Assembly: GCA_016208165.1 (NCBI GenBank)
Contig: JACQYL010000053.1
Coordinates: 21,447-85,446 of the forward strand
Reading direction: 5' to 3'
Origin: Deltaproteobacteria bacterium
Lineage (GTDB): Bacteria; Desulfobacterota; Desulfarculia; JACQYL01
DNA: 64,000 nt
Positions 20,005-31,262 of the stretch are shown piece after piece (the stretch's first letter is position 1; each line of letters begins with the position of its first letter). The notes under the pieces are model-generated. The model did not search any database and had not been told where the DNA came from. It was given only the letters and a program-made list of their open reading frames with translations. Position numbers and translations under genes: made by a program.

Positions 20005-20043
20005 CAAAAAAACCGGGAGAACCCGATTCAACAGGTTTTCCCG
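20005..20043 (-). terminator. Rho-independent terminator at the 3' end of the minus-strand cytochrome operon
   Basis: Plus strand reads AAAAAAA-CCGGGAGAAC-(12 nt loop)-GTTTTCCCGG. On the minus strand this is a 10-bp GC-rich stem followed by a U7 run, 54 nt downstream of the stop of the 11-heme cytochrome gene. Confidence 0.45.
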
Positions 20044-20096: not shown

Positions 20097-22394
20097 TCAA
20101 CGAAAGCTGTGACAACTGCAGCAATCAAGCCTTTCAGTATGTCCCGCCGGTTGCGCAGTGATCGGACCCGGGCCGCACAGATCTACCTGCGACCCGTCGC
20201 CCCCGCTCAGGTCCGGAGCGAAGGGCACGAACTCGAAGTTGGCGCCCTGATCCGCCATGTGGATTTTTGGATCCACACCGTCGTGACAGGAAGAGCACGC
20301 GGAAGCGGTTGGAGTGATGTTAATATCGTCGTTGGGACTCGCCGCGTCGTTCCCTACTTCGATGGTCGTAGGCAACACGTTGTCGCCGATGGCCGGCAAT
20401 TCAAAGCTTCCATCGATATGACAGGCCTCGCAATCGTTTAACGGCCGGGGATAGCGAACTTCGCTGTAGTCGTTGGGGCTACCGCCAAATCCGTACACCA
20501 CGATGCCTTCGGTCCTGAAACCGTCGGCGGAGGAGGCGCCGGCATGGATGGCATGGATCAAGTATTTGAAATCAATGGTTTCCTGTGTCTTACCGTCGGC
20601 CGTTGTCGCTGAGCCACCCGGGCGCCGGCCGATATCCGTGGCATCCGGGTTATGGCAGATTACGCACAGCTGAGTTTCGTCGTTCCGGTTTGCTCCGTGC
20701 AAGCTCAACAAACCGTGGCACTGATCGCAGTTGGCGATGTCCACAACCTCCCGACGCGCCTGTGGCGTAGCGTCCGTGACGGCAAAAAAATTCACCACGC
20801 CTTTGACCGGCACCCGTACATCGAACACGCCGGGTTCGGATTCCACCGCAGGATGCCCCTCGATGGCCACAACCCCCGATCCGGTCACAGCCGCAGGAAT
20901 GGCCACTCCGGATGTCACTGTAAACGTGCCGTCGCCGTTGTCCACCGCGCTTGTAATCGGATTGATCGAGATGGGCTGAGCCGGGGTGCTGGTGCTGCCC
21001 GTGTTCGTATAATCTTCGGAATTCCAGCCGATGAGGATCGCCAATCGGCTGGCGCCTCCGGGAGCATTGAATTCCGGATCGACGAGAATATCGTAGGGCG
21101 CGTCACCGTTGGTGGGATCCGTAACCGAGAATGTGATCACCGGAAACTGTCCGGGCCCCGTGTTCTGGACGTCCAATATGTTGTATTCGAACCTGGCTGC
21201 GGCGGCCTGTTCCGGAATCACGTGAGTATCCGTGATGCCCGCCGCGCCTCCGGACGCCGGATGACAGTTGACGCAGCTGCGGTTGTCGGGTTGGGCGCCC
21301 CCGGCATGGTTTTCACCGGTCACCAAGTTGACGTCGTCGTGACACGACGTGCATGCGGCAATGGTGGGAACGTTCATCCAGTTGTCACCATCCGGCGTAT
21401 CGGAGTCCGAGCCGTCGTGACATTTGGTGCAGTTGCGCCGATCCTGAGGAAAGACCACGTTGGAGTAGTCGTTTACCGAATCCCCAAAACCATATATCAC
21501 ATATTCACCGCCGGCCTGCACACTGGGCAGGTCCTCACCCGAGTGGATCTTGTGGATCATTACCTTGAAATCAACGGTGTTGCCGCTGTTGGCGTCCGTA
21601 CTGCCCGGATTGTGGCAGGTTACGCAATACTTGACAGCGATCCTATCCCCGCCGTGAAATCCCAGCTTCCGGTGGCACTCGTCGCAGTTCGCGTTCCTCA
21701 CGATCGAGCGAGTGGTTATCGGCGTGCTGCCATCGGGCACGAATTCGAATATGGCGTTATCCGTGTTCTCCGTAGTCTGCATGGCCACGCGATGCGTCAG
21801 GGCGGGATTATACGCGACGGCTACGGGAGACGTTACGTTTTGGATATCGAACGAGAAGGTATAGCTGTAGCTGCCGTCCTGATTGTCCACAAACACGCCC
21901 CCCTGCGTACTCGTCCTTTCCGACGAAGCTTGAACCTGGTCCGTGGTCCCCGGCCCTACATCAGGGGTTTCAATCACATTGATGTAACTCTGCCAGAAAC
22001 TCGCATTGCCGTTTGCAGCGGGATTCAGCTGCGCCAGAGTGAAGCGGATGTTCGAAGGGGCCACAAACGCGAGCGGCTGGCCCGCGTTGAACAGCCTGAA
22101 ATTTATGGTCGTGGCGCCGCCAACGATCGTCACTGCGTCTATGACCCCGGTTATAGTCGTCTCCGGAGTGCTGTGCTGCGCGGCCACGTCTACGATCCGG
22201 CCCGGATCGTGGCACAGCATGCATTCTTCGTTGAATGTCTGCTCCACGAGAGGGGGCGCCTGATCTCCGGTACCGCCGCTCTCGCTGCCGCACCCTGCCA
22301 GAAGTAGAACGTAACCGATCGCAAGGCACAAGACCAAGCTGTTAAACAATCCTTTTCTCATGACACCATCTCCTTCCACTCTGAGGTCCGTCAC
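20097..22394 (-). CDS. Large multiheme c-type cytochrome lipoprotein (11 CxxCH motifs), candidate outer-surface terminal reductase
   Basis: CxxCH motifs: CMLCH, CDECH, CVTCH, CTKCH, CTSCH, CVNCH, CDQCH, CVICH, CEACH, CSSCH, CCSCH. Signal peptide with lipobox LLAGC (alternative start at M12 near 22361). Thr/Gly/Asn-rich, beta-rich composition between hemes. Confidence 0.9.
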   Translation of the reverse strand: MTDLRVEGDGVMRKGLFNSLVLCLAIGYVLLLAGCGSESGGTGDQAPPLVEQTFNEECMLCHDPGRIVDVAAQHSTPETTITGVIDAVTIVGGATTINFRLFNAGQPLAFVAPSNIRFTLAQLNPAANGNASFWQSYINVIETPDVGPGTTDQVQASSERTSTQGGVFVDNQDGSYSYTFSFDIQNVTSPVAVAYNPALTHRVAMQTTENTDNAIFEFVPDGSTPITTRSIVRNANCDECHRKLGFHGGDRIAVKYCVTCHNPGSTDANSGNTVDFKVMIHKIHSGEDLPSVQAGGEYVIYGFGDSVNDYSNVVFPQDRRNCTKCHDGSDSDTPDGDNWMNVPTIAACTSCHDDVNLVTGENHAGGAQPDNRSCVNCHPASGGAAGITDTHVIPEQAAAARFEYNILDVQNTGPGQFPVITFSVTDPTNGDAPYDILVDPEFNAPGGASRLAILIGWNSEDYTNTGSTSTPAQPISINPITSAVDNGDGTFTVTSGVAIPAAVTGSGVVAIEGHPAVESEPGVFDVRVPVKGVVNFFAVTDATPQARREVVDIANCDQCHGLLSLHGANRNDETQLCVICHNPDATDIGRRPGGSATTADGKTQETIDFKYLIHAIHAGASSADGFRTEGIVVYGFGGSPNDYSEVRYPRPLNDCEACHIDGSFELPAIGDNVLPTTIEVGNDAASPNDDINITPTASACSSCHDGVDPKIHMADQGANFEFVPFAPDLSGGDGSQVDLCGPGPITAQPAGHTERLDCCSCHSFR

Positions 22395-22403
22395 AAACTT
22401 ATG

Positions 22404-23000
22404 TTATCCCTTGTCGTGAAGGTAGAACTCCTCGTACAAGACGATCGCCTTCTTTACTGCGAATGTCGCCGCACGGGATGATATGGTCGCCCCGGCGATC
22501 CCGGTAATGTCTTTACCGACCGTTAGAACGGAACCGCTGGTCTTACCTTGGTACTGATCCATGAAACTACGTCTCGCGATGGGACGTCCCCTTTTTTCCT
22601 GATAGCTCATCACGAGCACTCTCTGGACGGCGCCCCTCAGATCCATTGCGATCATGAACTCGACAGGGCCCCATTTTCCGGGTTGGTCATCAATAACGGC
22701 CACCCCTATTTTTTTTCCGTCCTTTTCAGCAAAGTAGAAATCGATCTTCTTGCTTGCAACCACGGCTGCGGACTCTGAACCTTCCTGGAGAAATTCGAGG
22801 CTTCCTCCCAACCGTTCCGTCACGCGTTGCTCAACCTCGCCTTTCAACCTTTCCGTCTGTTTGATGATCTTGGTGCCCGCACCAAAAACCTCGAGCAGGG
22901 CCTCTTTGAGCGTCAACAAGGTGAACGCGTGGCCGAGAACAACAGAAGCGGCGAAAACGGCCACTGCGCTTACTACAACAAGAGCTTTCTGCTTTGTCAT
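22404..23000 (-). CDS. Membrane-anchored FMN-binding domain protein (FMN_bind; RnfG/NqrC/PplA-like flavinylation substrate)
   Basis: N-terminal TM helix. C-terminal region DITGIAGATISSRAATFAVKKA contains the conserved D..(S/T)GAT(I/L)(S/T) motif whose Thr is the FMN attachment site in NqrC/RnfG. Start taken at MTKQK (23000), which is preceded by an AGGAGA RBS. Confidence 0.8.
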   Translation of the reverse strand: MTKQKALVVVSAVAVFAASVVLGHAFTLLTLKEALLEVFGAGTKIIKQTERLKGEVEQRVTERLGGSLEFLQEGSESAAVVASKKIDFYFAEKDGKKIGVAVIDDQPGKWGPVEFMIAMDLRGAVQRVLVMSYQEKRGRPIARRSFMDQYQGKTSGSVLTVGKDITGIAGATISSRAATFAVKKAIVLYEEFYLHDKG

Positions 23001-23013
23001 GTGGTGTCTCCTG

Positions 23014-24036
23014 CTATTCGATAGTGGAAATCGCCTGGAGGCGATCTTTGAGACCGGAAGAGTACAAGACTTCACCGGATTCGGTGACCATGATCACCTC
23101 CATGCCGGGAATGCTCTCAACGATCTCGAGACCTTTCTCGGGCCCCAAAACGAACAACGCCGTATTCCAAGCGTCTGCGAGAGCCGGGTCCCCGTACAGG
23201 ATCGTAGTGCCCGTGAGTCCTGAAGCGGGATACCCTGTCTTCGGGTTAAAGATGTGGTGATAGCGCTTACCCTGGTCCATGAAGAATCGCTCGTAATCCC
23301 CCGATCCCATGATCGAGAGGTCCTCCGCCTCTATGAATCCGAGAAGGCCGTCGCCCCGTGGGTCTTTGATTCCCACCTTCCAGGACCGGAGTCCCTTTTT
23401 CCCCATGGCGTATACGTCTCCCCCGGCATCGATCAAGGCTGAGGTCACTCCTTCAGCCCGCAACACTTTTATCGCCTCACCCACCGCGTATCCTTTTGCA
23501 ATGCCGCCTAAGTCGATCCGAATATCGGGCCTAGTCTTTTCCACCTTCGAGTTCCGGACGACCAGATGTTTGTAGCCGATCTTTTCGATGCATCGTTCGA
23601 TGCTTTCGTGATCGGGGACGGAGGGATGGTCTCCATAAAACCCCCATAGCGATATGAGCGGACAGATCGTGATATCAAAGGCGCCGTCCGAATCGCGACT
23701 CACGCCTAAGGCTAATTTCACGAGATCCACGATCTCGCTGTCTGAAATGGGGGCGCCCTCATTGTTGAATGCATACAGGGGGCTTTTAGGGTTCAGGAAA
23801 TCAAACTTCTCATCGACTTCTTCCATCCGCTGCAAGGCCGCGTTCACGGCCTTGGATGTCAATTTCTCGGGGCCGACGGCATAGACGGTTACGTAGGTAT
23901 CCATCATCACGCGCGTCTGCTTTTCCAGATGGAATCGATAGGAGTTGTAGGTTCTCACGCTAAAAAAGACAGCGAACAGCACTCCGACAACTATGAATAT
24001 GACTTTCGCCGTCTTAGACAGGCTATTTTGCTTCAA
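23014..24036 (-). CDS. apbE: FAD:protein FMN transferase (ApbE family), membrane-anchored
   Basis: N-terminal TM helix, then the typical ApbE layout (MDTYVTVYA...GVSRDSDGAFDITI.PLI..WGF...IDLGGIAKGYAV...GD.Y..G). 340 aa. Confidence 0.85.
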   Translation of the reverse strand: MKQNSLSKTAKVIFIVVGVLFAVFFSVRTYNSYRFHLEKQTRVMMDTYVTVYAVGPEKLTSKAVNAALQRMEEVDEKFDFLNPKSPLYAFNNEGAPISDSEIVDLVKLALGVSRDSDGAFDITICPLISLWGFYGDHPSVPDHESIERCIEKIGYKHLVVRNSKVEKTRPDIRIDLGGIAKGYAVGEAIKVLRAEGVTSALIDAGGDVYAMGKKGLRSWKVGIKDPRGDGLLGFIEAEDLSIMGSGDYERFFMDQGKRYHHIFNPKTGYPASGLTGTTILYGDPALADAWNTALFVLGPEKGLEIVESIPGMEVIMVTESGEVLYSSGLKDRLQAISTIE

Positions 24037-24153
24037 TCCACCTCCTAGTTATGCTTCTTCCAGATCAGATCTCTCAGCCGGTCCGACCACGTGCGGCGGA
24101 CTACGCTTGTCCTCGTCAAACATAAGCCGGACATCATTTGGATCTTCCGGTTC

Positions 24154-25425
24154 TTAAAAGGTCGTCCTCCATCCCAACGTCCATCGGATGTACTTGAGCG
24201 TTTCCGAACCATCAGACCGATCGGCATCCACGAGTTCGATCTGTGGTATGATCGTCGAGTTACTGGTAATCCAGTAGTTCAAAGCCATGGACAATGTCTT
24301 ATAATTATCCGTAACGGCGCTCGTTGAAGGGAAGAAGAGATCTACATCGCTATACTTGGCCAACACCCGCCATTCGGGATTGAAAGTGTACATGGCCCGG
24401 ACGTAATATCCTTCGTTCACCGCATCCGCCGTTCCCCCGCCGATCAGCGGGGAATCTTCCTGTTCTCTTCGCAGGTATTCGCCGAGAAGGCTGATGCCCT
24501 TGTATCGCAAGTCCGCACCACCGAGCCATTGCCACGAGTTGTTATCATCGTCGTTATCCCACCTGCCCCATCCCAAGGAGCCCAGAATCCGTATGCTTAC
24601 GTCCATCAAGGAGAATTCGGGCGCTACATGCAGCAACAGATTCTTGGTGCCGTTGTTGTCCACGTAACGGCTCTCTTCATTGTCCCCGTTCAGATATGGA
24701 TAGAAATACACGGGCAATGAGAAATTCTCGAAATCGAAGTTGCGGTACAGCTCCACCCCCAGCGATCGCCAGGACTCCAAAAAGAGCAAGCCATTGTTCC
24801 CGTGATACTGCTCATGCCACCAAGTCTGTCTGGCGTATTCCTCGCTGAACATCGGGTAGAAGGCGCCCACCCGCGCTTCCAGTTCCCAGGGAAGCCTGAC
24901 CGTCATGTATGCCTCGTCAAGGTCCACATCCACGGAAGCCGAGCCCGCTCGGGTGATGTCTCCGCCGAGCCCGGGGGTGGCGGCGGCCAACACTTCGATC
25001 TTGGGAGCAACATCGAGACTCAGCCACTCGTTGAGCACTTTGCTGAAATAGAGATATACGTCACTGATGCCGGCGGAAAGATTGTTGTTCTGGCTCACAT
25101 CGTTGCGCTCACCGTCCGTCCGATCCAGCATGAAGAACTTGAAATGTCCCCCAATGTTGACCCCCTTCCGCACCTCCTCCATGATTTTTGAAGGCATCTG
25201 CGACAGTTCGTCAACACTGTCCTCGAGCTCGGGAATGGCTGCAATCTCTTCCTTCTGGGATTTCTGCTCCTCCTCGAGTTGTTCCACCCGCTCTTTCATC
25301 GTATCCATTGCCTTTTGCATCTGCTGGATCTGCTCTTTAAGATCGGCAATTTCGTCCGACATCGACCGAGCAGGCGCCAACAAAACACAAACAATGACAA
25401 CCACCAATGCAATTCGCAGCTTCAT
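24154..25425 (-). CDS. Putative outer-membrane beta-barrel (porin-like) protein with an N-terminal coiled-coil segment
   Basis: Cleavable signal peptide, about 60-aa heptad-rich Glu/Gln/Lys segment, then alternating aromatic/hydrophilic beta-strand pattern rich in Tyr/Trp/Asn/Gly. C-terminal ...LGWRTTF ends in Phe as in OMP beta-signals. Confidence 0.5.
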   Translation of the reverse strand: MKLRIALVVVIVCVLLAPARSMSDEIADLKEQIQQMQKAMDTMKERVEQLEEEQKSQKEEIAAIPELEDSVDELSQMPSKIMEEVRKGVNIGGHFKFFMLDRTDGERNDVSQNNNLSAGISDVYLYFSKVLNEWLSLDVAPKIEVLAAATPGLGGDITRAGSASVDVDLDEAYMTVRLPWELEARVGAFYPMFSEEYARQTWWHEQYHGNNGLLFLESWRSLGVELYRNFDFENFSLPVYFYPYLNGDNEESRYVDNNGTKNLLLHVAPEFSLMDVSIRILGSLGWGRWDNDDDNNSWQWLGGADLRYKGISLLGEYLRREQEDSPLIGGGTADAVNEGYYVRAMYTFNPEWRVLAKYSDVDLFFPSTSAVTDNYKTLSMALNYWITSNSTIIPQIELVDADRSDGSETLKYIRWTLGWRTTF

Positions 25426-25443
25426 ACCTCCCCCTCCTTATGT

Positions 25444-26292
25444 TTACCTAATAATGGTCCGGATCATTCTATTGACGGACAGGCCGAGTGACTTCCGGAA
25501 CCTCCGGGCGCCACCCACCCTCTCTACGTTTCCCTCCTTTTTATCCGTTCTCGTTTCACTCGGGGGTTCCATCCCTGGCCGGAGAAGCATAGCTACCAAG
25601 TGATTCTCGTGCTGTTGAGCAACCCTCCGATGAGTAGAAAGATCCCGCACAGTTTCCAGATCGGCGCTGCCTTCGAACATCGTCCGATCCATGGGGAAGT
25701 TCTGCCTGCGAAGATGAGCAACGGTGAAATGGATGATAAACACGTGCCCCATGGCCAGCATGCCCTCGATACGATGCACCCAAAGGGCTATGTTCAAGCC
25801 CCATCCCGGTATGATGCGCGTCGAAATCAGAGGGAAAGCCAGGATCAAGCCCGTTGTGCCCATGACCATCATGCCCCAGAATACCGCTCCCAGGTAATCC
25901 ACCTTTTCCCAATATCCCCAGCGGTCAAGACGTGGATGAGATCCTTTGCCGAGAAACCAGGCCACATGCTGGAAAAAATCCTTCACATCATGAGGTTGGG
26001 GAAACATGGAATCCGGGCCCATGAGGGATGACGGAAAAGTACGCCAGCGAATCCGGAAGGCCAGGTACACGAGATGGAGCAGAAAGGCCAGAATCATGAA
26101 AAGTCCCACGTACTTGTGAACCACGAGGGCCGACTCGTAGCCGCCGAACACGCGGGCAAGCCCTTTTCCCCAAGCCGTTTGGATATACATGCGCGCAAGT
26201 CCGGACGCGCCCTGCGTCAAGAACGTGATGATCAGCACCACATGTGAAATGCGTTCTACGGTGTTAAACCGTTTAAGTCTGATCTTCTCCAT
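25444..26292 (-). CDS. Membrane b-type cytochrome (Ni/Fe-hydrogenase b-type cytochrome subunit / cytochrome b561 family; candidate quinol oxidase)
   Basis: RFNTVERISHVVLIITF at the N-terminus is characteristic of the PF01292 family. Four hydrophobic helices with conserved His. Start taken at MEKIRLKRF. Overlaps the upstream gene stop by about 20 nt. Confidence 0.7.
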   Translation of the reverse strand: MEKIRLKRFNTVERISHVVLIITFLTQGASGLARMYIQTAWGKGLARVFGGYESALVVHKYVGLFMILAFLLHLVYLAFRIRWRTFPSSLMGPDSMFPQPHDVKDFFQHVAWFLGKGSHPRLDRWGYWEKVDYLGAVFWGMMVMGTTGLILAFPLISTRIIPGWGLNIALWVHRIEGMLAMGHVFIIHFTVAHLRRQNFPMDRTMFEGSADLETVRDLSTHRRVAQQHENHLVAMLLRPGMEPPSETRTDKKEGNVERVGGARRFRKSLGLSVNRMIRTIIR

Positions 26293-26995
26293 CCGTTTGA
26301 TGACCCTCGTCGCTAGGTTTTCTCTTGAGCAACAACTCCCTGAGACTCCAAAGGAACGTATGAGGCAGAAACACCACAAAGATGCTCACCGACATCCCTA
26401 TCATGATCCAGAACGCATAAAACAGGATCGGGAAATCTTTTCTTGTGCTGAGAGACGCCGGATTTGGCGAATGAACGACGTAGCTGGCAAACGAGGCGTT
26501 GGCTCCTTCGTGACACTTGGAGCAGACGTAGGCATGCCTTCGTATGGGATTCATGGGTGAATAATAGTATTCGCCGCCGGAGATCGGCTCTCCACCATGG
26601 CACTGGCGACACGTCAGATTGGCCCGAACGGTGTGCAGGTCTCGGGTTTCTCTTGGATGGCAATCTTCGCAGGTTTGATACTCGTAGAACCTCAGCCCCA
26701 CATGGGAATCTTCGAGGCGGCTCCGAATTCCTATCCTGGCCGCAGCCGGAGTGTACGGCAGCAGTCCTCGCCTCAAACCCGGAATCGCAATCAACGGGGA
26801 TTCGCTGAAGGGTCTAGCCTCATATTCCTCGTAGTACCCGGTACTCGCTTCATAGTTCTTGTAGCGACGGATGGACGACGCCACTTCCTCCTGAGCATGG
26901 CACAAAGCAGGCCCCAGGAGCAGCGCCGCCGCCAGGCCTAAAAGCAGGGCTATCGATACTCTCCCTGCGGCTCGGTTTCTCATAAGGAATCGCAT
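26273..26995 (-). CDS. Triheme c-type cytochrome with N-terminal signal/anchor and C-terminal transmembrane helix
   Basis: CEDCH, CRQCH and CSKCH motifs. Hydrophobic C-terminus FPILFYAFWIMIGMSVSIFVVFL followed by a charged tail. Confidence 0.8.
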   Translation of the reverse strand: MRFLMRNRAAGRVSIALLLGLAAALLLGPALCHAQEEVASSIRRYKNYEASTGYYEEYEARPFSESPLIAIPGLRRGLLPYTPAAARIGIRSRLEDSHVGLRFYEYQTCEDCHPRETRDLHTVRANLTCRQCHGGEPISGGEYYYSPMNPIRRHAYVCSKCHEGANASFASYVVHSPNPASLSTRKDFPILFYAFWIMIGMSVSIFVVFLPHTFLWSLRELLLKRKPSDEGHQTDGEDQT

Positions 26996-27193
26996 ATCCG
27001 TATCACCAATATTCCCGTATCAGCGCTCAGTGCATTTTCCCGGTCAGGATTCACCCATTGTTGGTGGAACGGGTGACCTGTTCGGCCCTGTCTGGATCTT
27101 CTTCCAAAGAAGAACTCACTTCTTCAATCGGTAGGTTTCCGCCGGATTCCTTCCAACTAAAGGAAGTATTCTGTCTTCCGGATTTCCGGCATG

Positions 27194-28525
27194 TTACTTG
27201 AGTTCAAACGTTTCCGCGCCTTCCTCCTTAAGCTGTATTTCCGGATCTTTTCCTTCCCCTTCCGGGGAGCCGGCCGATTCCGATTCGCCTCCGCCAAAGC
27301 CTCCAAAAGCATCTCGCTGCAACTTCTTCAAGTCGGCGCCCTTATGCTTGTGGCACGTCTCGCAGGAATTAGGAATGTTGGGATTCTTGATCGTGTCGAT
27401 GGGCAACAGGGTGACGAACACATGGCTGTGTAGATCCCCGGATTCCGCGTTTTTCGCGATCCTCGGCATATGACATCCTACGCAATTTGCAAAAGTGTGG
27501 ATGGCGTGCGCCTTAACCCTGTTGACCAACTGATGGCACTGGAAGCACTGCTGCGAACCGGCGGCGGACGTTTGGGACTTGGTTGGAGGCAGACCGATCT
27601 GGTGTACAAAGTGGCAGGAGGTACAGGTAACGCCTTCCACGTAATGAGCCGATTTCAGCCAATCGTTGTATTGCTGATGATGCCCCTTGGAGAACTCATT
27701 CATGTAGAAGTTTCCCGTGTCGCCCTCAGCATACGAAGTGGCGTTGTAATAGGCGGCAAGGGCTTCTCCCGGCTGGTAATCGACGGGCCAATGAACGCCT
27801 TCGGCTACCGTGGACATGCCGCGCTCGTGACACGAACCACAGATCTGAACCCTCGCTCCCGTGGACAATTTGGCCGGATTTACAATTGTTTTACGCTTTT
27901 CGAACACGGCTGTTTTCGGTAAGGCGACATGCCAGGAACCTTTCCCATGACACGCCTCGCACCCTATGCTCAACTCGCTGAACCTGTTGTTTTTCAGATC
28001 CACACCGGTGGCGTGGCAACCACCGCAATACTGGAGCCAGGGTTTTTGATCCCAGTCACCTTCGCGATAAGTCACCCATCGATGAGTGTCCATATTGTAT
28101 TGAATGGGAGCGATGTAAAGAGCGCCGTTTTTTTCAACGATGAAACGCTGCTGCCATTGCCCCCCAATGGCGTATTTGATCTCGTCAAGTTTGGGGATAT
28201 AGATCTGATCCGTCGATGGCTTGGCTGCATCTTCCGATTGGGTGAAGCTCTCCCGAATCTTGGCCTCACTATAAGGGACCATAATGGCGCTGGCGTCCTT
28301 TTGCACATCCAGGGTGCTGCGGCTGTGAGAGGTCATCTTCCAGGAATCGTAATGCTGCAGGTGGCACATCTTGCATCGATCCGATCCGGCGTACGTTTTT
28401 GGAGCTGCTGTGATTTCTTCAATATCTACAGGCGCTTCCGGACTACATGCGGCTAAAACAAGGAGTGTCAGACAGACTGCGATAAGCTTCGAACGGCTTC
28501 CCATGACCATGTTCCCCTCCTCCAT
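27194..28525 (-). CDS. Octaheme c-type cytochrome lipoprotein (periplasmic)
   Basis: Eight CxxCH motifs (CKMCH, CGGCH, CEACH, CGSCH, CTSCH, CFQCH, CVGCH, CETCH). Signal peptide with lipobox LAAC. Confidence 0.9.
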   Translation of the reverse strand: MEEGNMVMGSRSKLIAVCLTLLVLAACSPEAPVDIEEITAAPKTYAGSDRCKMCHLQHYDSWKMTSHSRSTLDVQKDASAIMVPYSEAKIRESFTQSEDAAKPSTDQIYIPKLDEIKYAIGGQWQQRFIVEKNGALYIAPIQYNMDTHRWVTYREGDWDQKPWLQYCGGCHATGVDLKNNRFSELSIGCEACHGKGSWHVALPKTAVFEKRKTIVNPAKLSTGARVQICGSCHERGMSTVAEGVHWPVDYQPGEALAAYYNATSYAEGDTGNFYMNEFSKGHHQQYNDWLKSAHYVEGVTCTSCHFVHQIGLPPTKSQTSAAGSQQCFQCHQLVNRVKAHAIHTFANCVGCHMPRIAKNAESGDLHSHVFVTLLPIDTIKNPNIPNSCETCHKHKGADLKKLQRDAFGGFGGGESESAGSPEGEGKDPEIQLKEEGAETFELK

Positions 28526-28607
28526 AAACGATAACCGTTTTCTCGATGACCCGGTTCGGCATTTCTGTCGGATCGGGTTCCGGCCGCCGGCATCGGCGCC
28601 TGGGTGA

Positions 28608-29879
28608 TCACATGAAAGGAGCTTTTTCTTTCACTGAAGATCCGAGGTTCTCATCGATCGTTTCGACACGCGCAAGGTCCCACAGACGGCTCGTACCGTC
28701 CGCCATGACATAGAGAGTCGCCACCCAATTACTGATCCACTCAACGAGATGACTAATTCTTTTCTTCTTTTCCAGCCTTGCTCCACGAATGCTGGTCCGC
28801 GCCGTTTCCCACAGGTACGGTATGGCTTCCCAGGAAAGCGTGAGTTTCGCCGCCACACTCTTTGACGAAATCCCGAAAAATCGCAGGAACGACAGTAAAC
28901 CGGTCAGTCCGTTGGCCAAGTCCGCCAGCGACGTGGTCATGGTTAACAGGAAACTCAGAAGCATCAGATAGAAAAGGCGAAATGCAAACTGAAACCCGTA
29001 GGTAACCCCTTCAATGGTCATCGTCAAATACGGTATCTCGAATATCGGACGGCCTTCCCCCTGAAGCAGAGCCGGGATCAGAAAAGATGTCAGAAGCAGC
29101 CATCGATACCTTCTTGATCTCCCCAGTAGCTGGGACACCGGAATTCTCGATAGCAACATCGAAGCCAGGAGAAGTCCGGAAAGGCTGAGCATTAACCAGA
29201 GGTTGGCGCTGATCAGAAGAATGAGCGACAAAATCCCACATCCGGCAATCTTTGCCTTGCTTGACAACTGATGGATACAAGAGTCCCGATGCACATAATG
29301 TCGAGATTCCGGCCTGGGCATCCCCTCCGATACCGTCAGAGCGGCTTCGGTCATCGTCCCGATGTGTTCCAACCGTATGCACACGGAGCGTGCAATCGCT
29401 CCGGTAACCCAGCCCATGAGCACGCCTCCGATGCAAAGCCAAGGCAGGAACACAAAAACACCTTCGTGTTTGATTAGTATGAGGTAGGCGAGGACCAGTT
29501 GGGTCAGATTATGGCAAAGGGCGCCCAAAATACTGATCCCGATCAAGCTGAAACGATAGTGACTGCTCGAACCGGAGACCCAGAAAAGGAAGCCCATGGC
29601 GCAGGTGCTGAGAAAGGCCCCGGAAATGCTCAGTACGAAAGGAGGGGACAGGAACGTGCCCATGAGGAAGGAACTGAGAATGGCCCGCAACAAAGCGACT
29701 TCCAGGGCTGCTTTAAAACCCAGGGTCACCAGGGCTACCAAAGTAATCATGTTGGCCAGCCCCAGCCTGAGACCGGGTATGGGGTGGGGCACAATCGATT
29801 CCGCTATTTGAAGCACACAAGAGAGGGAAACGAAAAGCGCTATTTTTTGCATTCGATCGGCTGACAAGGATGCTTCCAT
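28608..29879 (-). CDS. Fusion membrane protein: N-terminal Gx-transporter domain (formerly 'heptaprenyl diphosphate synthase component I', Hpt_synth_I) plus C-terminal ECF-transporter T-component (EcfT/CbiQ)-like domain
   Basis: Residues about 10-175 match the Gx transporter family (IAESIVPHPIPGLRLGLANMITLVALV...ISILGALCHNLTQL). Residues about 200-420 match EcfT/CbiQ (LTMTIEGVTYGFQFAFRLFYLMLLSFLLTMTTSLADLANGLTGLL..L.FFGIS...A.KLTLSW..IPYL.E.A). Confidence 0.65.
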   Translation of the reverse strand: MEASLSADRMQKIALFVSLSCVLQIAESIVPHPIPGLRLGLANMITLVALVTLGFKAALEVALLRAILSSFLMGTFLSPPFVLSISGAFLSTCAMGFLFWVSGSSSHYRFSLIGISILGALCHNLTQLVLAYLILIKHEGVFVFLPWLCIGGVLMGWVTGAIARSVCIRLEHIGTMTEAALTVSEGMPRPESRHYVHRDSCIHQLSSKAKIAGCGILSLILLISANLWLMLSLSGLLLASMLLSRIPVSQLLGRSRRYRWLLLTSFLIPALLQGEGRPIFEIPYLTMTIEGVTYGFQFAFRLFYLMLLSFLLTMTTSLADLANGLTGLLSFLRFFGISSKSVAAKLTLSWEAIPYLWETARTSIRGARLEKKKRISHLVEWISNWVATLYVMADGTSRLWDLARVETIDENLGSSVKEKAPFM

Positions 29880-29900
29880 AGGGCGGCTTCCACTTCCGGT

Positions 29901-30308
29901 TCAGCGAACCACGGCATCCACTAGCGGCGCTTTAGTGGATTGAACTTCGATCAGAATCCTGTTTGGGACACAAACGATAACCTCTCCCGGTACCTGTATC
30001 CAACCCGTACGAACGCAAATCTGTTTGCGGCAATTCGATCGCGCCACTCTGACTTTGCCCTCGTTTACTTCGATGTCCATCTCCTTGGAGGGAAGCGTGA
30101 ATACGTTGTTTTTCGACAGGTTCAACTCGGCCACCAGAAGGCCGTCCTTGAAAACGACGGCCGAGGTAGCTCGCCGGCTCTGACGGCCGGAGTCGTGTCC
30201 CATCCAGAGGATGCTTCCGGCGGAAAGGACGACAATCAGAAAGATCGAAAGCTTTTCGAGTCGAGTCATCCTGCGCGCATAGACTTGCCCCTGGCCTTCG
30301 TCCATCAT
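29901..30308 (-). CDS. NusG domain II-containing small membrane protein (NusG_II, DUF1312-like)
   Basis: About 120-135 aa. N-terminal TM helix then a beta-rich domain with spaced Cys (CRKQICVRTGWIQVPGEVIVCVPNRILIEV). The size, topology and pairing with a Gx-transporter gene 21 nt downstream are typical of this family. Alternative start at MTRLEK (30269). Confidence 0.6.
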   Translation of the reverse strand: MMDEGQGQVYARRMTRLEKLSIFLIVVLSAGSILWMGHDSGRQSRRATSAVVFKDGLLVAELNLSKNNVFTLPSKEMDIEVNEGKVRVARSNCRKQICVRTGWIQVPGEVIVCVPNRILIEVQSTKAPLVDAVVR

Positions 30309-30419
30309 TCATGGAGACTTTCTTGATGGAGAGCGCGTCCACAATTCACACGTATGGGAACCCTCAAGAGATATTTCAAGTCCCGAATCCCACTTTGCAG
30401 CACACAACGAGCGGCATTC

Positions 30420-30620
30420 ATTCCGATCGGGGTTGGACTAGAGACTCACGCGGCAGATAGGCGTTTTCTTCGTTGTGCGCCAAGCCACATATCGACTTTT
30501 TATTTTCTATACGAAATATAGTACAGGAGTCAACACCGATCTTAACTTTTTGTTTTACTATTGATTTCAACCGCCGGCGTCTTTAGCTGAAACTATATCG
30601 AAATCATCTACTTTGATCAC
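30420..30620. promoter_or_regulatory. AT-rich segment inside a 950-bp divergent intergenic region (likely promoter region of the minus-strand cytochrome/flavin operon)
   Basis: Marked local drop in GC (TTTTTATTTTCTATACGAAATATAGTAC...) in an otherwise high-GC sequence, directly upstream (minus-strand sense) of the first gene of the operon. Confidence 0.25.
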
Positions 30621-31262
30621 AAAACAGACGCCGGATGACAGTTGGAAATCCGTTTCCCGGTCAAATGATTCTCAGCAAATCGATCTCTCTGTCAAAGACG
30701 CAGCTGTAGAAGAGAAACCGCCCTTAAGAGCACATCATAACACTGGGAACTGCTTAAGATTGAACTTCCTGGGTTTTTTACACGAATCGGCGTTCATACT
30801 CATGTATGGCCGCATCGAGCTACGATCCCGACGCTGACTTCATGTGCAAGGGCTTCTTTCGATCACGGTCTTTTTAGAGGCGGGACTCGATCACGCACCA
30901 TGCGTTCGTGATTCGATCTGTTTTGCTCAGGCTGCGATACCTCTATAAAAAAGAGGGCTCTATGCCCTTACGAAGCAATTATACGATAACAGGAGAGCCG
31001 CAGGCCTGTCAAGAAATCGCCACGAAATTGCAGCGAACTCCGCACCGGGAATTGGCCTGTAATCGCGCACGGCCATCATGACTTCGGGATCACGCGGACG
31101 GTATAGCCCGAACAAGAACGATTTCTCAATTGCCTTTTCACGAAAAGGCGACTACTTTTTTGATGGTAATCCTGTTGAACAACATCGGCGAACTGTCACG
31201 ACCGAAATCATCCTGCCGCGGGAATACGATCCGTATACCCCCGAGTAATTAGGAGGACCACC

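Follow-up and report, generated by a model that had tools for sequence, protein, structure and literature searches.

A gene cluster of Desulfobacterota that combines a predicted flavin exporter, a flavin transferase and an outer-membrane porin with multiheme cytochromes

We analyzed a 64-kb stretch of DNA from a Desulfobacterota bacterium (contig JACQYL010000053.1 of assembly GCA_016208165.1; the whole stretch is hereafter called the window) and found that nine co-directional genes on its minus strand (g1 to g9, positions 20097-30308) join flavin export and flavinylation genes and an outer-membrane porin gene to four cytochrome genes. The nine genes very probably form one functional unit, and this unit is likely to serve extracytoplasmic or extracellular electron transfer. 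Our overall reading, to which we give about an even chance, is that the cluster encodes a co-inherited, modular, quinone-linked extracytoplasmic electron-transfer system whose porin passes a small redox solute. Each module is known already; what appears to be new is their combination, in which an energy-coupling factor (ECF)-type exporter of flavin adenine dinucleotide (FAD) and the flavin transferase ApbE stand beside an orphan flavoprotein of the RnfG type and a dedicated porin of 16 strands, cytochromes being present or not and MtrAB missing.

Electron transfer across the outer membrane has been explained by cytochrome-in-barrel complexes of the Mtr, Pcc and Cyc2 types, and extracellular electron transfer (EET) by way of flavins has been regarded as a trait of single-membrane bacteria. 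The cluster family described here bridges the two: it links an MtrC-type cytochrome genetically to a FAD exporter, to ApbE and to a flavoprotein, and it dispenses with MtrAB. If a flavin does pass through the porin, this route would be a two-membrane counterpart of the flavin EET of Listeria and a functional replacement for MtrAB. The gene set allows questions to be asked about the cooperation of flavins with MtrC-type cytochromes, about a porin as a flavin channel, and about electron exchange with minerals or partner organisms in uncultured relatives of sulfate reducers and in Omnitrophota. An earlier note on this DNA, made from the sequence alone, had known of no characterization of the combined architecture, and we likewise found no description of it in the searchable literature, that is, in flavinylation surveys, the ECF-exporter paper (PMC9973259), a 2025 study of Desulfobacterota Mtr systems and targeted full-text searches covering part of the journals. 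The architecture goes unmentioned in the text of the 2021 flavinylation survey, whose supplement may already list it.

A conserved cluster of flavin and cytochrome genes

From g1 to g9, the gaps between the open reading frames (ORFs), recomputed from their coordinates (Table 1), were 21, 82, 198, -20, 18, 117, 13 and 9 nt. The earlier note had given the same nine co-directional genes and gaps, heme counts of 8, 3 and 11 and a terminator after the last gene; the counts agreed with the CXXCH motifs, and a hairpin with a T run was present at 20029-20010. All of the protein families that it had proposed were found above the curated Pfam cut-offs.

The nine proteins of the cluster were each searched for in 72 loci of species-representative genomes and in several metagenome contigs (loci are numbered with the prefix L and proteins with P). 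The same nine families recur in approximately 20 species-level Desulfobacterota metagenome-assembled genomes (MAGs). Near-complete genomes are among the carriers, as exemplified by the 4.73-Mb contig CAXXLZ010000002.1. Desulfobacterota loci with adequate flanks carry the full set, all nine genes being present in 13 loci, and the remaining ones end at contig edges and agree as far as their sequence goes. Two gene orders were observed. The window, L005 and L010 begin with the NusG_II and EetB::EcfT genes, while the majority of loci carry these two genes between cytochrome b and the porin; in both orders, cytochrome genes are interleaved with flavin genes. Because the same content is kept despite rearrangement, these loci provide strong evidence for functional linkage and for selection on content. 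The ApbE/FMN_bind pair is retained throughout the recurring set, and the chance adjacency of flavin kit and cytochromes that the earlier note had left open is thereby ruled out. A search starting from the MtrC-like protein again led to a complete cluster, that of L081, with a 56%-identical homologue.

The constant core across the loci is the flavin kit plus the porin. In L006 (1222-3446), from a Desulfobacteraceae MAG, an NrfD and 4Fe-4S (NrfC-like) pair stands in the usual place of cytochrome b and the triheme cytochrome, and the quinone-interacting module therefore appears interchangeable. In the octaheme homologue of the same locus, an ordinary signal peptide takes the place of the lipobox. 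Some loci hold a second MtrC-like paralogue, such as one of 732 aa located downstream in L003 (13016-15214). Two copies of the ApbE-FMNb-MtrC-like segment were seen on different contigs in the Olavius symbiont Delta 1 (L021 and L030) and in MAG S23.Bin075 (L007 and L051).

Four genes, g1, g2, g7 and g8, make up the flavin kit. The protein g1 matched NusG_II with 86 bits (cut-off 29.6), and a g1-type gene adjoins the EetB-like gene in every related locus. We take g1 to be a putative equivalent of Listeria EetA, presuming that EetA is itself a PF07009 protein; eetA and eetB are known to lie together. In published genomes, eetB co-localizes with eetA in 3,328 cases and with apbE in 2,169 (PMC9973259). 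The extracytoplasmic domain of g1 and its homologues holds three invariant Cys residues, C-x2-Q-x-C ... C-V-P (C..Q.C...GWI....CVP), a pattern suggestive of a disulfide, a metal site or a redox site. Residues 16-164 of g2 matched Hpre_diP_synt_I (PF07456) with 136 bits (cut-off 30, E 1.5e-39), and residues 200-362 matched CbiQ (PF02361) with 53 bits (cut-off 25, E 4e-14), covering model positions 3-158 of 216; g2 also matched PF12822 weakly. PF07456 corresponds to EetB, an ECF-S-like FAD-exporting subunit that partners the ECF-T protein FmnA, and EetB::ECF-T fusions have already been reported (PMC9973259). The fusion is kept in all relatives of the window cluster.

The match of g7 to ApbE reached 273 bits (cut-off 25.6). 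In all family loci, apbE lies directly upstream of the gene for the FMN-binding protein (FMN, flavin mononucleotide; g8, hereafter FMNb), and fusion proteins of ApbE and FMN_bind exist in both domain orders (P0472 and P0477). FMNb, for which we took the start MTKQK of the deposited protein P0001, matched FMN_bind with 40 bits (cut-off 22). Its AlphaFold2 model (predicted local distance difference test score (pLDDT) 86.6) had RnfG and NqrC chains as its only structural matches, and a profile search of the PDB found RnfG at 4e-8. The flavinylation region of the window protein reads KDITGIAGATISS (D-I-T-G-I-A-G-A-T), and the family consensus is DIxGISGATISS; in terms of the ApbE target motif D-x-x-[S/T]-G-A-[S/T], GAT is invariant across the family and the residue at -3 is Ser in most members. 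FMNb is the sole cluster protein with a conserved [SA]GAT motif, and its gene is flanked by apbE and by the MtrC-like gene g9; it is predicted to be the ApbE substrate, modified at Thr172. A search for extra ApbE targets among the other eight proteins yielded only non-conserved GGAT, GGAS and AGAS strings in the MtrC-like protein. An A-x-A-like site precedes the invariant FTLLT of FMNb (..GHA/FTLLT), relatives have clear signal peptides, and no lipobox was found; FMNb thus probably has a cleavable signal peptide and is released as a soluble protein into the periplasm.

The FMNb family is compact: of 599 matches in a 90%-identity database and a superfamily of 4,322, only approximately 70 clusters (50% identity) reach E <= 1e-30. 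More distant FMN_bind matches (L045-L076) sit in Rnf/Nqr operons. Two members, P0367 and P0374, carry an extra C-terminal domain of approximately 200 aa, of no obvious identity and with a W-rich motif at its end, which may point to a partner domain.

The porin and its cytochrome-free relatives

The protein g6 matched Porin_O_P with 26 bits (cut-off 20.9). Its AlphaFold2 model (mean pLDDT 79, with most of the barrel >85) shows a barrel of 16 strands with a helical loop inside and, at the N-terminus, a periplasmic coiled coil; the top Foldseek matches were PorB, chitoporin, DcaP, OprP/OprO and OmpF. These structural neighbors include the anion-selective OprP/OprO as well as DcaP, which likewise has a coiled coil. 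MtrB was absent from the top Foldseek matches, and the Pfam scan gave no match to PF11854 (MtrB_PioB). The porin g6 is of the diffusion type and probably trimeric. Several of its loops are invariant, and an aromatic inner-loop motif, FSEEYA..WWHEQYHGNNGL, is kept from Desulfobacterota to Elusimicrobia.

Six loci of Omnitrophota and Elusimicrobia keep the genes NusG_II-EetB::EcfT-porin-ApbE-FMNb, with identities of 40-60%. By tblastn, these six loci gave no match to any of the four cluster cytochromes, and the two of them that were scanned against Pfam (L023 and L026) contained no cytochrome genes. The porin of these cytochrome-free flavin loci is orthologous to g6; the porin therefore belongs to the flavin module and not to a cytochrome sheath. 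The sister loci essentially repeat, in a cell with two membranes, the logic of the Listeria locus (a dehydrogenase, quinone synthesis, flavin export, flavinylation and a flavoprotein) and have a porin besides. Their neighboring genes encode NqrB-F or Nuo, ETF/ETF-QO, UbiA and a polyprenyl synthase (L023 16-5991; L026 309-6003 and 11530-14685). A conserved 155-aa protein with four transmembrane helices and no Pfam match is encoded directly after FMNb in the sister loci (L023 10604-11071); it was never seen in Desulfobacterota loci and is a candidate for the quinol:flavoprotein link that the pair of cytochrome b and triheme cytochrome replaces. Its gene also stands beside the FMN-binding gene in L013, L014, L022, L024, L026, L034-L037, L039, L043 and L044. 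We had considered that this small Omnitrophota protein might be a free OmcA N-terminal domain; it showed no similarity and is the four-helix membrane protein described here.

The earlier note had read the cluster as a porin-multiheme-cytochrome conduit, which we take in the sense of MtrAB or Pcc. In such an MtrCAB/Pcc-type system, the barrel would enclose either a multiheme protein or the heme arm at the N-terminus of the MtrC-like protein, and the flavoprotein would be a fixed relay in an envelope-spanning wire. The gene content is indeed superficially Pcc-like in its combination of a barrel with an octaheme protein and a multiheme lipoprotein; an additional CXXCH arm follows right after the lipid anchor in most MtrC-like members (in g9 the motif lies at residue 58, between lipobox and domain I); and the invariant barrel loops could be docking sites. 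However, in its 16 strands and helical inner loop the barrel resembles classical solute porins rather than MtrB, loci without any cytochromes retain this porin as well, and the N-terminal heme is absent in a subgroup of the MtrC-like proteins (L001, L008, L009, L011, L012 and L018). Furthermore, the nearest MtrC-family outgroup, with approximately 50% identity and a length of approximately 730 aa, is encoded in canonical MtrC-MtrA-MtrB_PioB clusters that have a CymA-like neighbor, no flavin genes and an MtrB_PioB barrel of 660-876 aa. MtrAB has no counterpart in the window cluster, where no MtrA-type periplasmic decaheme cytochrome (NrfB-like) was found either. The solute-porin fold, the cytochrome-free orthologs and the presence of MtrAB in the outgroup together argue that the barrel is not the sheath of a cytochrome wire; this part of the earlier claim was not supported, and we consider such a conduit unlikely. 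The porin may instead be a solute or flavin channel, a role whose probability we put at or a little below one half.

Cytochromes and the proposed electron path

The cytochrome genes of the window encode two large lipoproteins and a predicted quinol-oxidizing pair. For the latter, g5 matched Ni_hydr_CYTB (PF01292) with 45 bits (cut-off 30), and the C-terminal helix of g4 (...FLPHT..RE) is conserved in the family alignment. In L002 and L016, triheme cytochrome and cytochrome b are joined in one 497-aa paralogue, present as an extra copy upstream; therefore, the membrane-bound triheme cytochrome c and cytochrome b are expected to act together. This fused variant lies at 310-1803 in L002.

The window copy of g5 is disturbed. 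For this gene we took the start MEKIRL, although the longest ORF reaches 26379. Compared with L005 at the DNA level, 128 nt are missing at a break at 25646-25651 between short TGTGCGG repeats, which causes a frameshift. All homologues lack this deletion. The homologues are all approximately 275 aa long with the C-terminus ...LLIGGLVNSPYITW; the window encodes homologue residues 2-214 in one frame and the last 19 in another, with approximately 40 residues missing between them. Accordingly, the conserved C-terminus ...LLIGGLLNSTRITW and its stop (25593-25595) lie out of the ORF frame at 25593-25652, and the shifted frame covers the last approximately 60 residues of the g5 ORF and accounts for the gap of 18 nt before the porin gene. 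The histidine-bearing four-helix core is intact in the family alignment. The deletion is either a real truncated subunit in the population or a mis-assembly of the MAG. The locus is also present in the raw reads of SRR12113402.

The best solved relative of the octaheme lipoprotein g3 was 6i5b_A (E 1.2e-20 over residues 31-296), with weaker matches to NrfA; this structure is OcwA, a surface reductase of Thermincola (PMC6703420). The protein g9, for which the deposited start gives 754 aa, matched the NCBIfam OmcA/MtrC model TIGR03507 with 552.6 bits (cut-off 209.3) and MtrC/MtrF domains II/IV of Pfam with 193 bits (cut-off 30), and its PDB matches were MtrF (4e-44), OmcA (8e-40) and MtrC. The NCBIfam scan of the cluster otherwise gave only sub-threshold matches to the GSU2203, DmsE and ExtN/O models. 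In L001 (10632-13022), the MtrC-like gene is called as two ORFs, an OmcA-like N-terminal domain of 164 aa and a protein of 622 aa.

These relationships also bear on the possibility that the cluster encodes a periplasmic reductase for a soluble acceptor entering via the porin, consisting of the octaheme protein with or without a periplasm-facing MtrC-like lipoprotein, so that no electrons leave the cell. The octaheme protein has relatives in OcwA and, at a greater distance, in NrfA, whose families include enzymes for soluble substrates, the porin is a channel of the substrate type, and the surface exposure of the lipoproteins is a prediction. Nevertheless, all eight heme motifs of g3 are CXXCH and none is CXXCK, members of the MtrC/OmcA family are otherwise cell-surface reductases of metals or electrodes, and the cytochrome-free relatives are laid out like the Listeria flavin-EET locus, with genes for quinone synthesis and an NADH dehydrogenase complex. 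A purely periplasmic reductase thus seems quite improbable. That two independent systems merely adjoin each other, a flavinylation kit serving a flavoprotein elsewhere in the genome and a separate cytochrome set, is highly improbable: the kit does occur without cytochromes in other phyla, and eetB/apbE kits serve systems of the Rnf, EET, MsrQ-like and NapH-like kinds (PMC9973259), yet here the two sets of genes are interleaved in both orders, the full set stands in every adequately flanked Desulfobacterota locus, consecutive genes lie close together or overlap, with only one terminator, and the gene of the sole protein with a conserved flavinylation motif has apbE on one side and the MtrC-like gene on the other.

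We thus return to a quinone-linked system with a solute-passing porin and propose the following course. The EetB::ECF-T fusion and the EetA-like NusG_II protein would deliver FAD to the periplasmic side, where ApbE would attach FMN to Thr172 of FMNb. EetB/FmnA-dependent FAD export and the biochemistry of ApbE have been published (PMC9973259; PMC12052999). Electrons would pass between the menaquinone pool and the pair of cytochrome b and triheme cytochrome and from there to the periplasmic FMNb, the octaheme protein or both, with FMNb acting as the carrier that links this quinol oxidase with the outer components. As the porin appears to be a solute channel tied to the flavin kit, the most likely outer-membrane step is the passage of a small redox molecule; no cytochrome would be sheathed by the porin, and a small redox-active solute would cross through it. 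The best candidate for this solute is a flavin from the exported FAD pool, the alternative being a soluble acceptor that enters. The solute would link the periplasmic carriers to the outside and, in Desulfobacterota, to the MtrC-like cytochrome, with the OcwA-like and MtrC-like lipoproteins extending the chain in this phylum. Electrons could be exported to Fe(III), humics or a partner, or taken up from a cathode or a partner; uptake is as plausible as export because the hosts are relatives of sulfate reducers. The most specific form of the scheme, in which free flavin is reduced by FMNb, crosses a flavin-selective porin and is re-oxidized by the surface MtrC-type cytochrome, or directly by the acceptor in Omnitrophota and Elusimicrobia, is in our judgment rather unlikely.

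Several points weigh against the proposed system. In principle there is room for a small heme domain in a 16-strand barrel, as in fused porin-cytochromes of the Cyc2 type, so the N-terminal monoheme arm of the MtrC-like protein could enter the porin. Flavin passage through g6 is a guess from the fold, the conserved aromatic residues and the gene linkage. The whole cluster family is known from genes alone, and the periplasmic or surface locations given here for FMNb, the octaheme protein and the MtrC-like protein are those suggested by their signal sequences only. The Thr flavinylation motif that the earlier note had assigned to FMNb stands only in part: the invariant GAT is present, but the window protein has AGAT instead of SGAT (Ala at -3) and its Asp lies at -8 instead of -6. 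Replacement of the motif Asp had only minor effects in a published mutagenesis (PMC12052999). For the exporter, no ORF of the window combined Walker A and LSGGQ motifs as expected of EcfA/EcfA' or another ATP-binding cassette ATPase; in Listeria the ECF ATPases are encoded elsewhere than in the locus (PMC9973259), and those for g2 may be so by analogy. Finally, with its frameshifted cytochrome b, this copy of the cluster may be impaired or mis-assembled.

Likeness to known systems and genomic context

The flavin EET locus of Listeria monocytogenes consists of Ndh2, DmkA/B, EetA, EetB, FmnA, FmnB/ApbE and PplA. It shares with the window cluster an EetB-type ECF-S protein (PF07456), ECF-T, ApbE, an extracytoplasmic FMN_bind protein and, presumably, an adjacent NusG_II (EetA-like) protein; the Omnitrophota and Elusimicrobia relatives share with it, in addition, UbiA, polyprenyl synthase genes and an NADH dehydrogenase complex. 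PplA is an FMN-binding lipoprotein, whereas the window flavoprotein has a signal peptide and one domain only, of the RnfG type. Unlike the Listeria locus, the window cluster resides in a two-membrane host, has EetB and ECF-T fused, and contains, in addition, a dedicated porin of the outer membrane and a pair of large multiheme lipoproteins. The Desulfobacterota form also lacks Ndh2 and Dmk genes. The earlier note was correct that Ndh2 is missing; neither Ndh2 nor DmkA/DmkB domains were detected in the nine genes or in the ten flanking ORFs scanned against Pfam, and cytochrome b with the membrane-anchored triheme cytochrome c constitutes the quinone link instead.

With the MtrCAB/OmcA system of Shewanella, the cluster shares a terminal member of the OmcA/MtrC family, which is here linked genetically to the export of flavin. 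In Shewanella itself, flavins and MtrC interact, and extracellular respiration is facilitated by the flavins (PMC4699859). The window cluster differs in lacking MtrA and MtrB, in having an ECF-type exporter rather than Bfe and a 16-strand porin barrel, and in that its flavin is predicted to be covalently fixed by ApbE on a dedicated protein. The Pcc clusters of Geobacter have a similar gene content (octaheme protein, barrel, multiheme lipoprotein), but the barrel of the window is OmpF/OprP-like and also occurs without cytochromes, and the described Pcc clusters are not known to include flavinylation genes. The predicted quinol-oxidizing pair resembles quinol oxidases of the CbcL type in combining an FdnI/HydC-family b cytochrome with a c-type heme domain.

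Rnf and Nqr complexes share with the cluster the RnfG/NqrC fold, the GAT Thr and an apbE gene adjoining FMNb. Since the genes for RnfD/NqrB, RnfE/A and RnfC/B are absent from the cluster, FMNb is an orphan. Compared with Thermincola OcwA, g3 has eight hemes instead of nine, aligns only over its N-terminal approximately 265 residues, is lipid-anchored and belongs to a two-membrane host.

Table 1. Features of the cluster and its borders (window coordinates)
Feature	Position	Strand	Basis
g1, single-pass membrane protein with extracytoplasmic NusG_II domain, EetA-like	29901-30308	-	PF07009, E 2e-24
g2, EetB-like ECF-S domain fused to ECF-T/CbiQ domain, 423 aa, predicted FAD exporter	28608-29879	-	Pfam
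g3, octaheme c-type cytochrome lipoprotein, OcwA-like	27194-28525	-	eight CXXCH, lipobox LAAC/S
g4, triheme c-type cytochrome, signal peptide, C-terminal membrane helix	26273-26995	-	three CXXCH
g5, membrane di-heme-type cytochrome b, FdnI/HydC family, predicted quinol-oxidizing subunit	25444-26292	-	PF01292, E 1e-11
g6, outer-membrane 16-strand porin	24154-25425	-	Porin_O_P and Porin_4 matches, AlphaFold2 model
g7, ApbE FAD:protein FMN transferase, N-terminal membrane anchor	23014-24036	-	PF02424, E 2.7e-81
g8 (FMNb), RnfG/NqrC-fold FMN-binding protein, 198 aa	22404-23000	-	PF04205, E 5e-10
g9, OmcA/MtrC-family multiheme lipoprotein, 11 CXXCH	20097-22394	-	TIGR03507; lipobox LAGC/G
Intrinsic-terminator-like hairpin GAATCGGGTTCTCCCGGTTT, then TTTTGT	20010-20029	-	approximately 70 nt past the g9 stop codon
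Sigma-70-like promoter candidate TTGACA-16-GAGAAT	30668-30695	-	consensus scan, weak evidence; approximately 360 nt upstream of g1
Second sigma-70-like promoter candidate	31012-30983	-	consensus scan, weak evidence

Between the operon and a divergent NMO gene lies an unusually long non-coding leader of approximately 950 nt (30309-31262). No Rfam match, to an FMN riboswitch or any other, was obtained in this leader at E <= 1. Sigma-54 activators and histidine kinases are often encoded upstream of related loci, and the activators prompted a search for sigma-54 sites; none was found in the leader, and matches across the window were at chance level. No further multiheme genes were found elsewhere in the window. 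Upstream, the cluster is followed by the divergent NMO gene and CbiZ, and downstream by EF-G, a HEAT-repeat protein and DUF4823. No functional tie was apparent to these flanking genes or to a flanking histidine kinase gene, and the cluster is therefore a self-contained unit.

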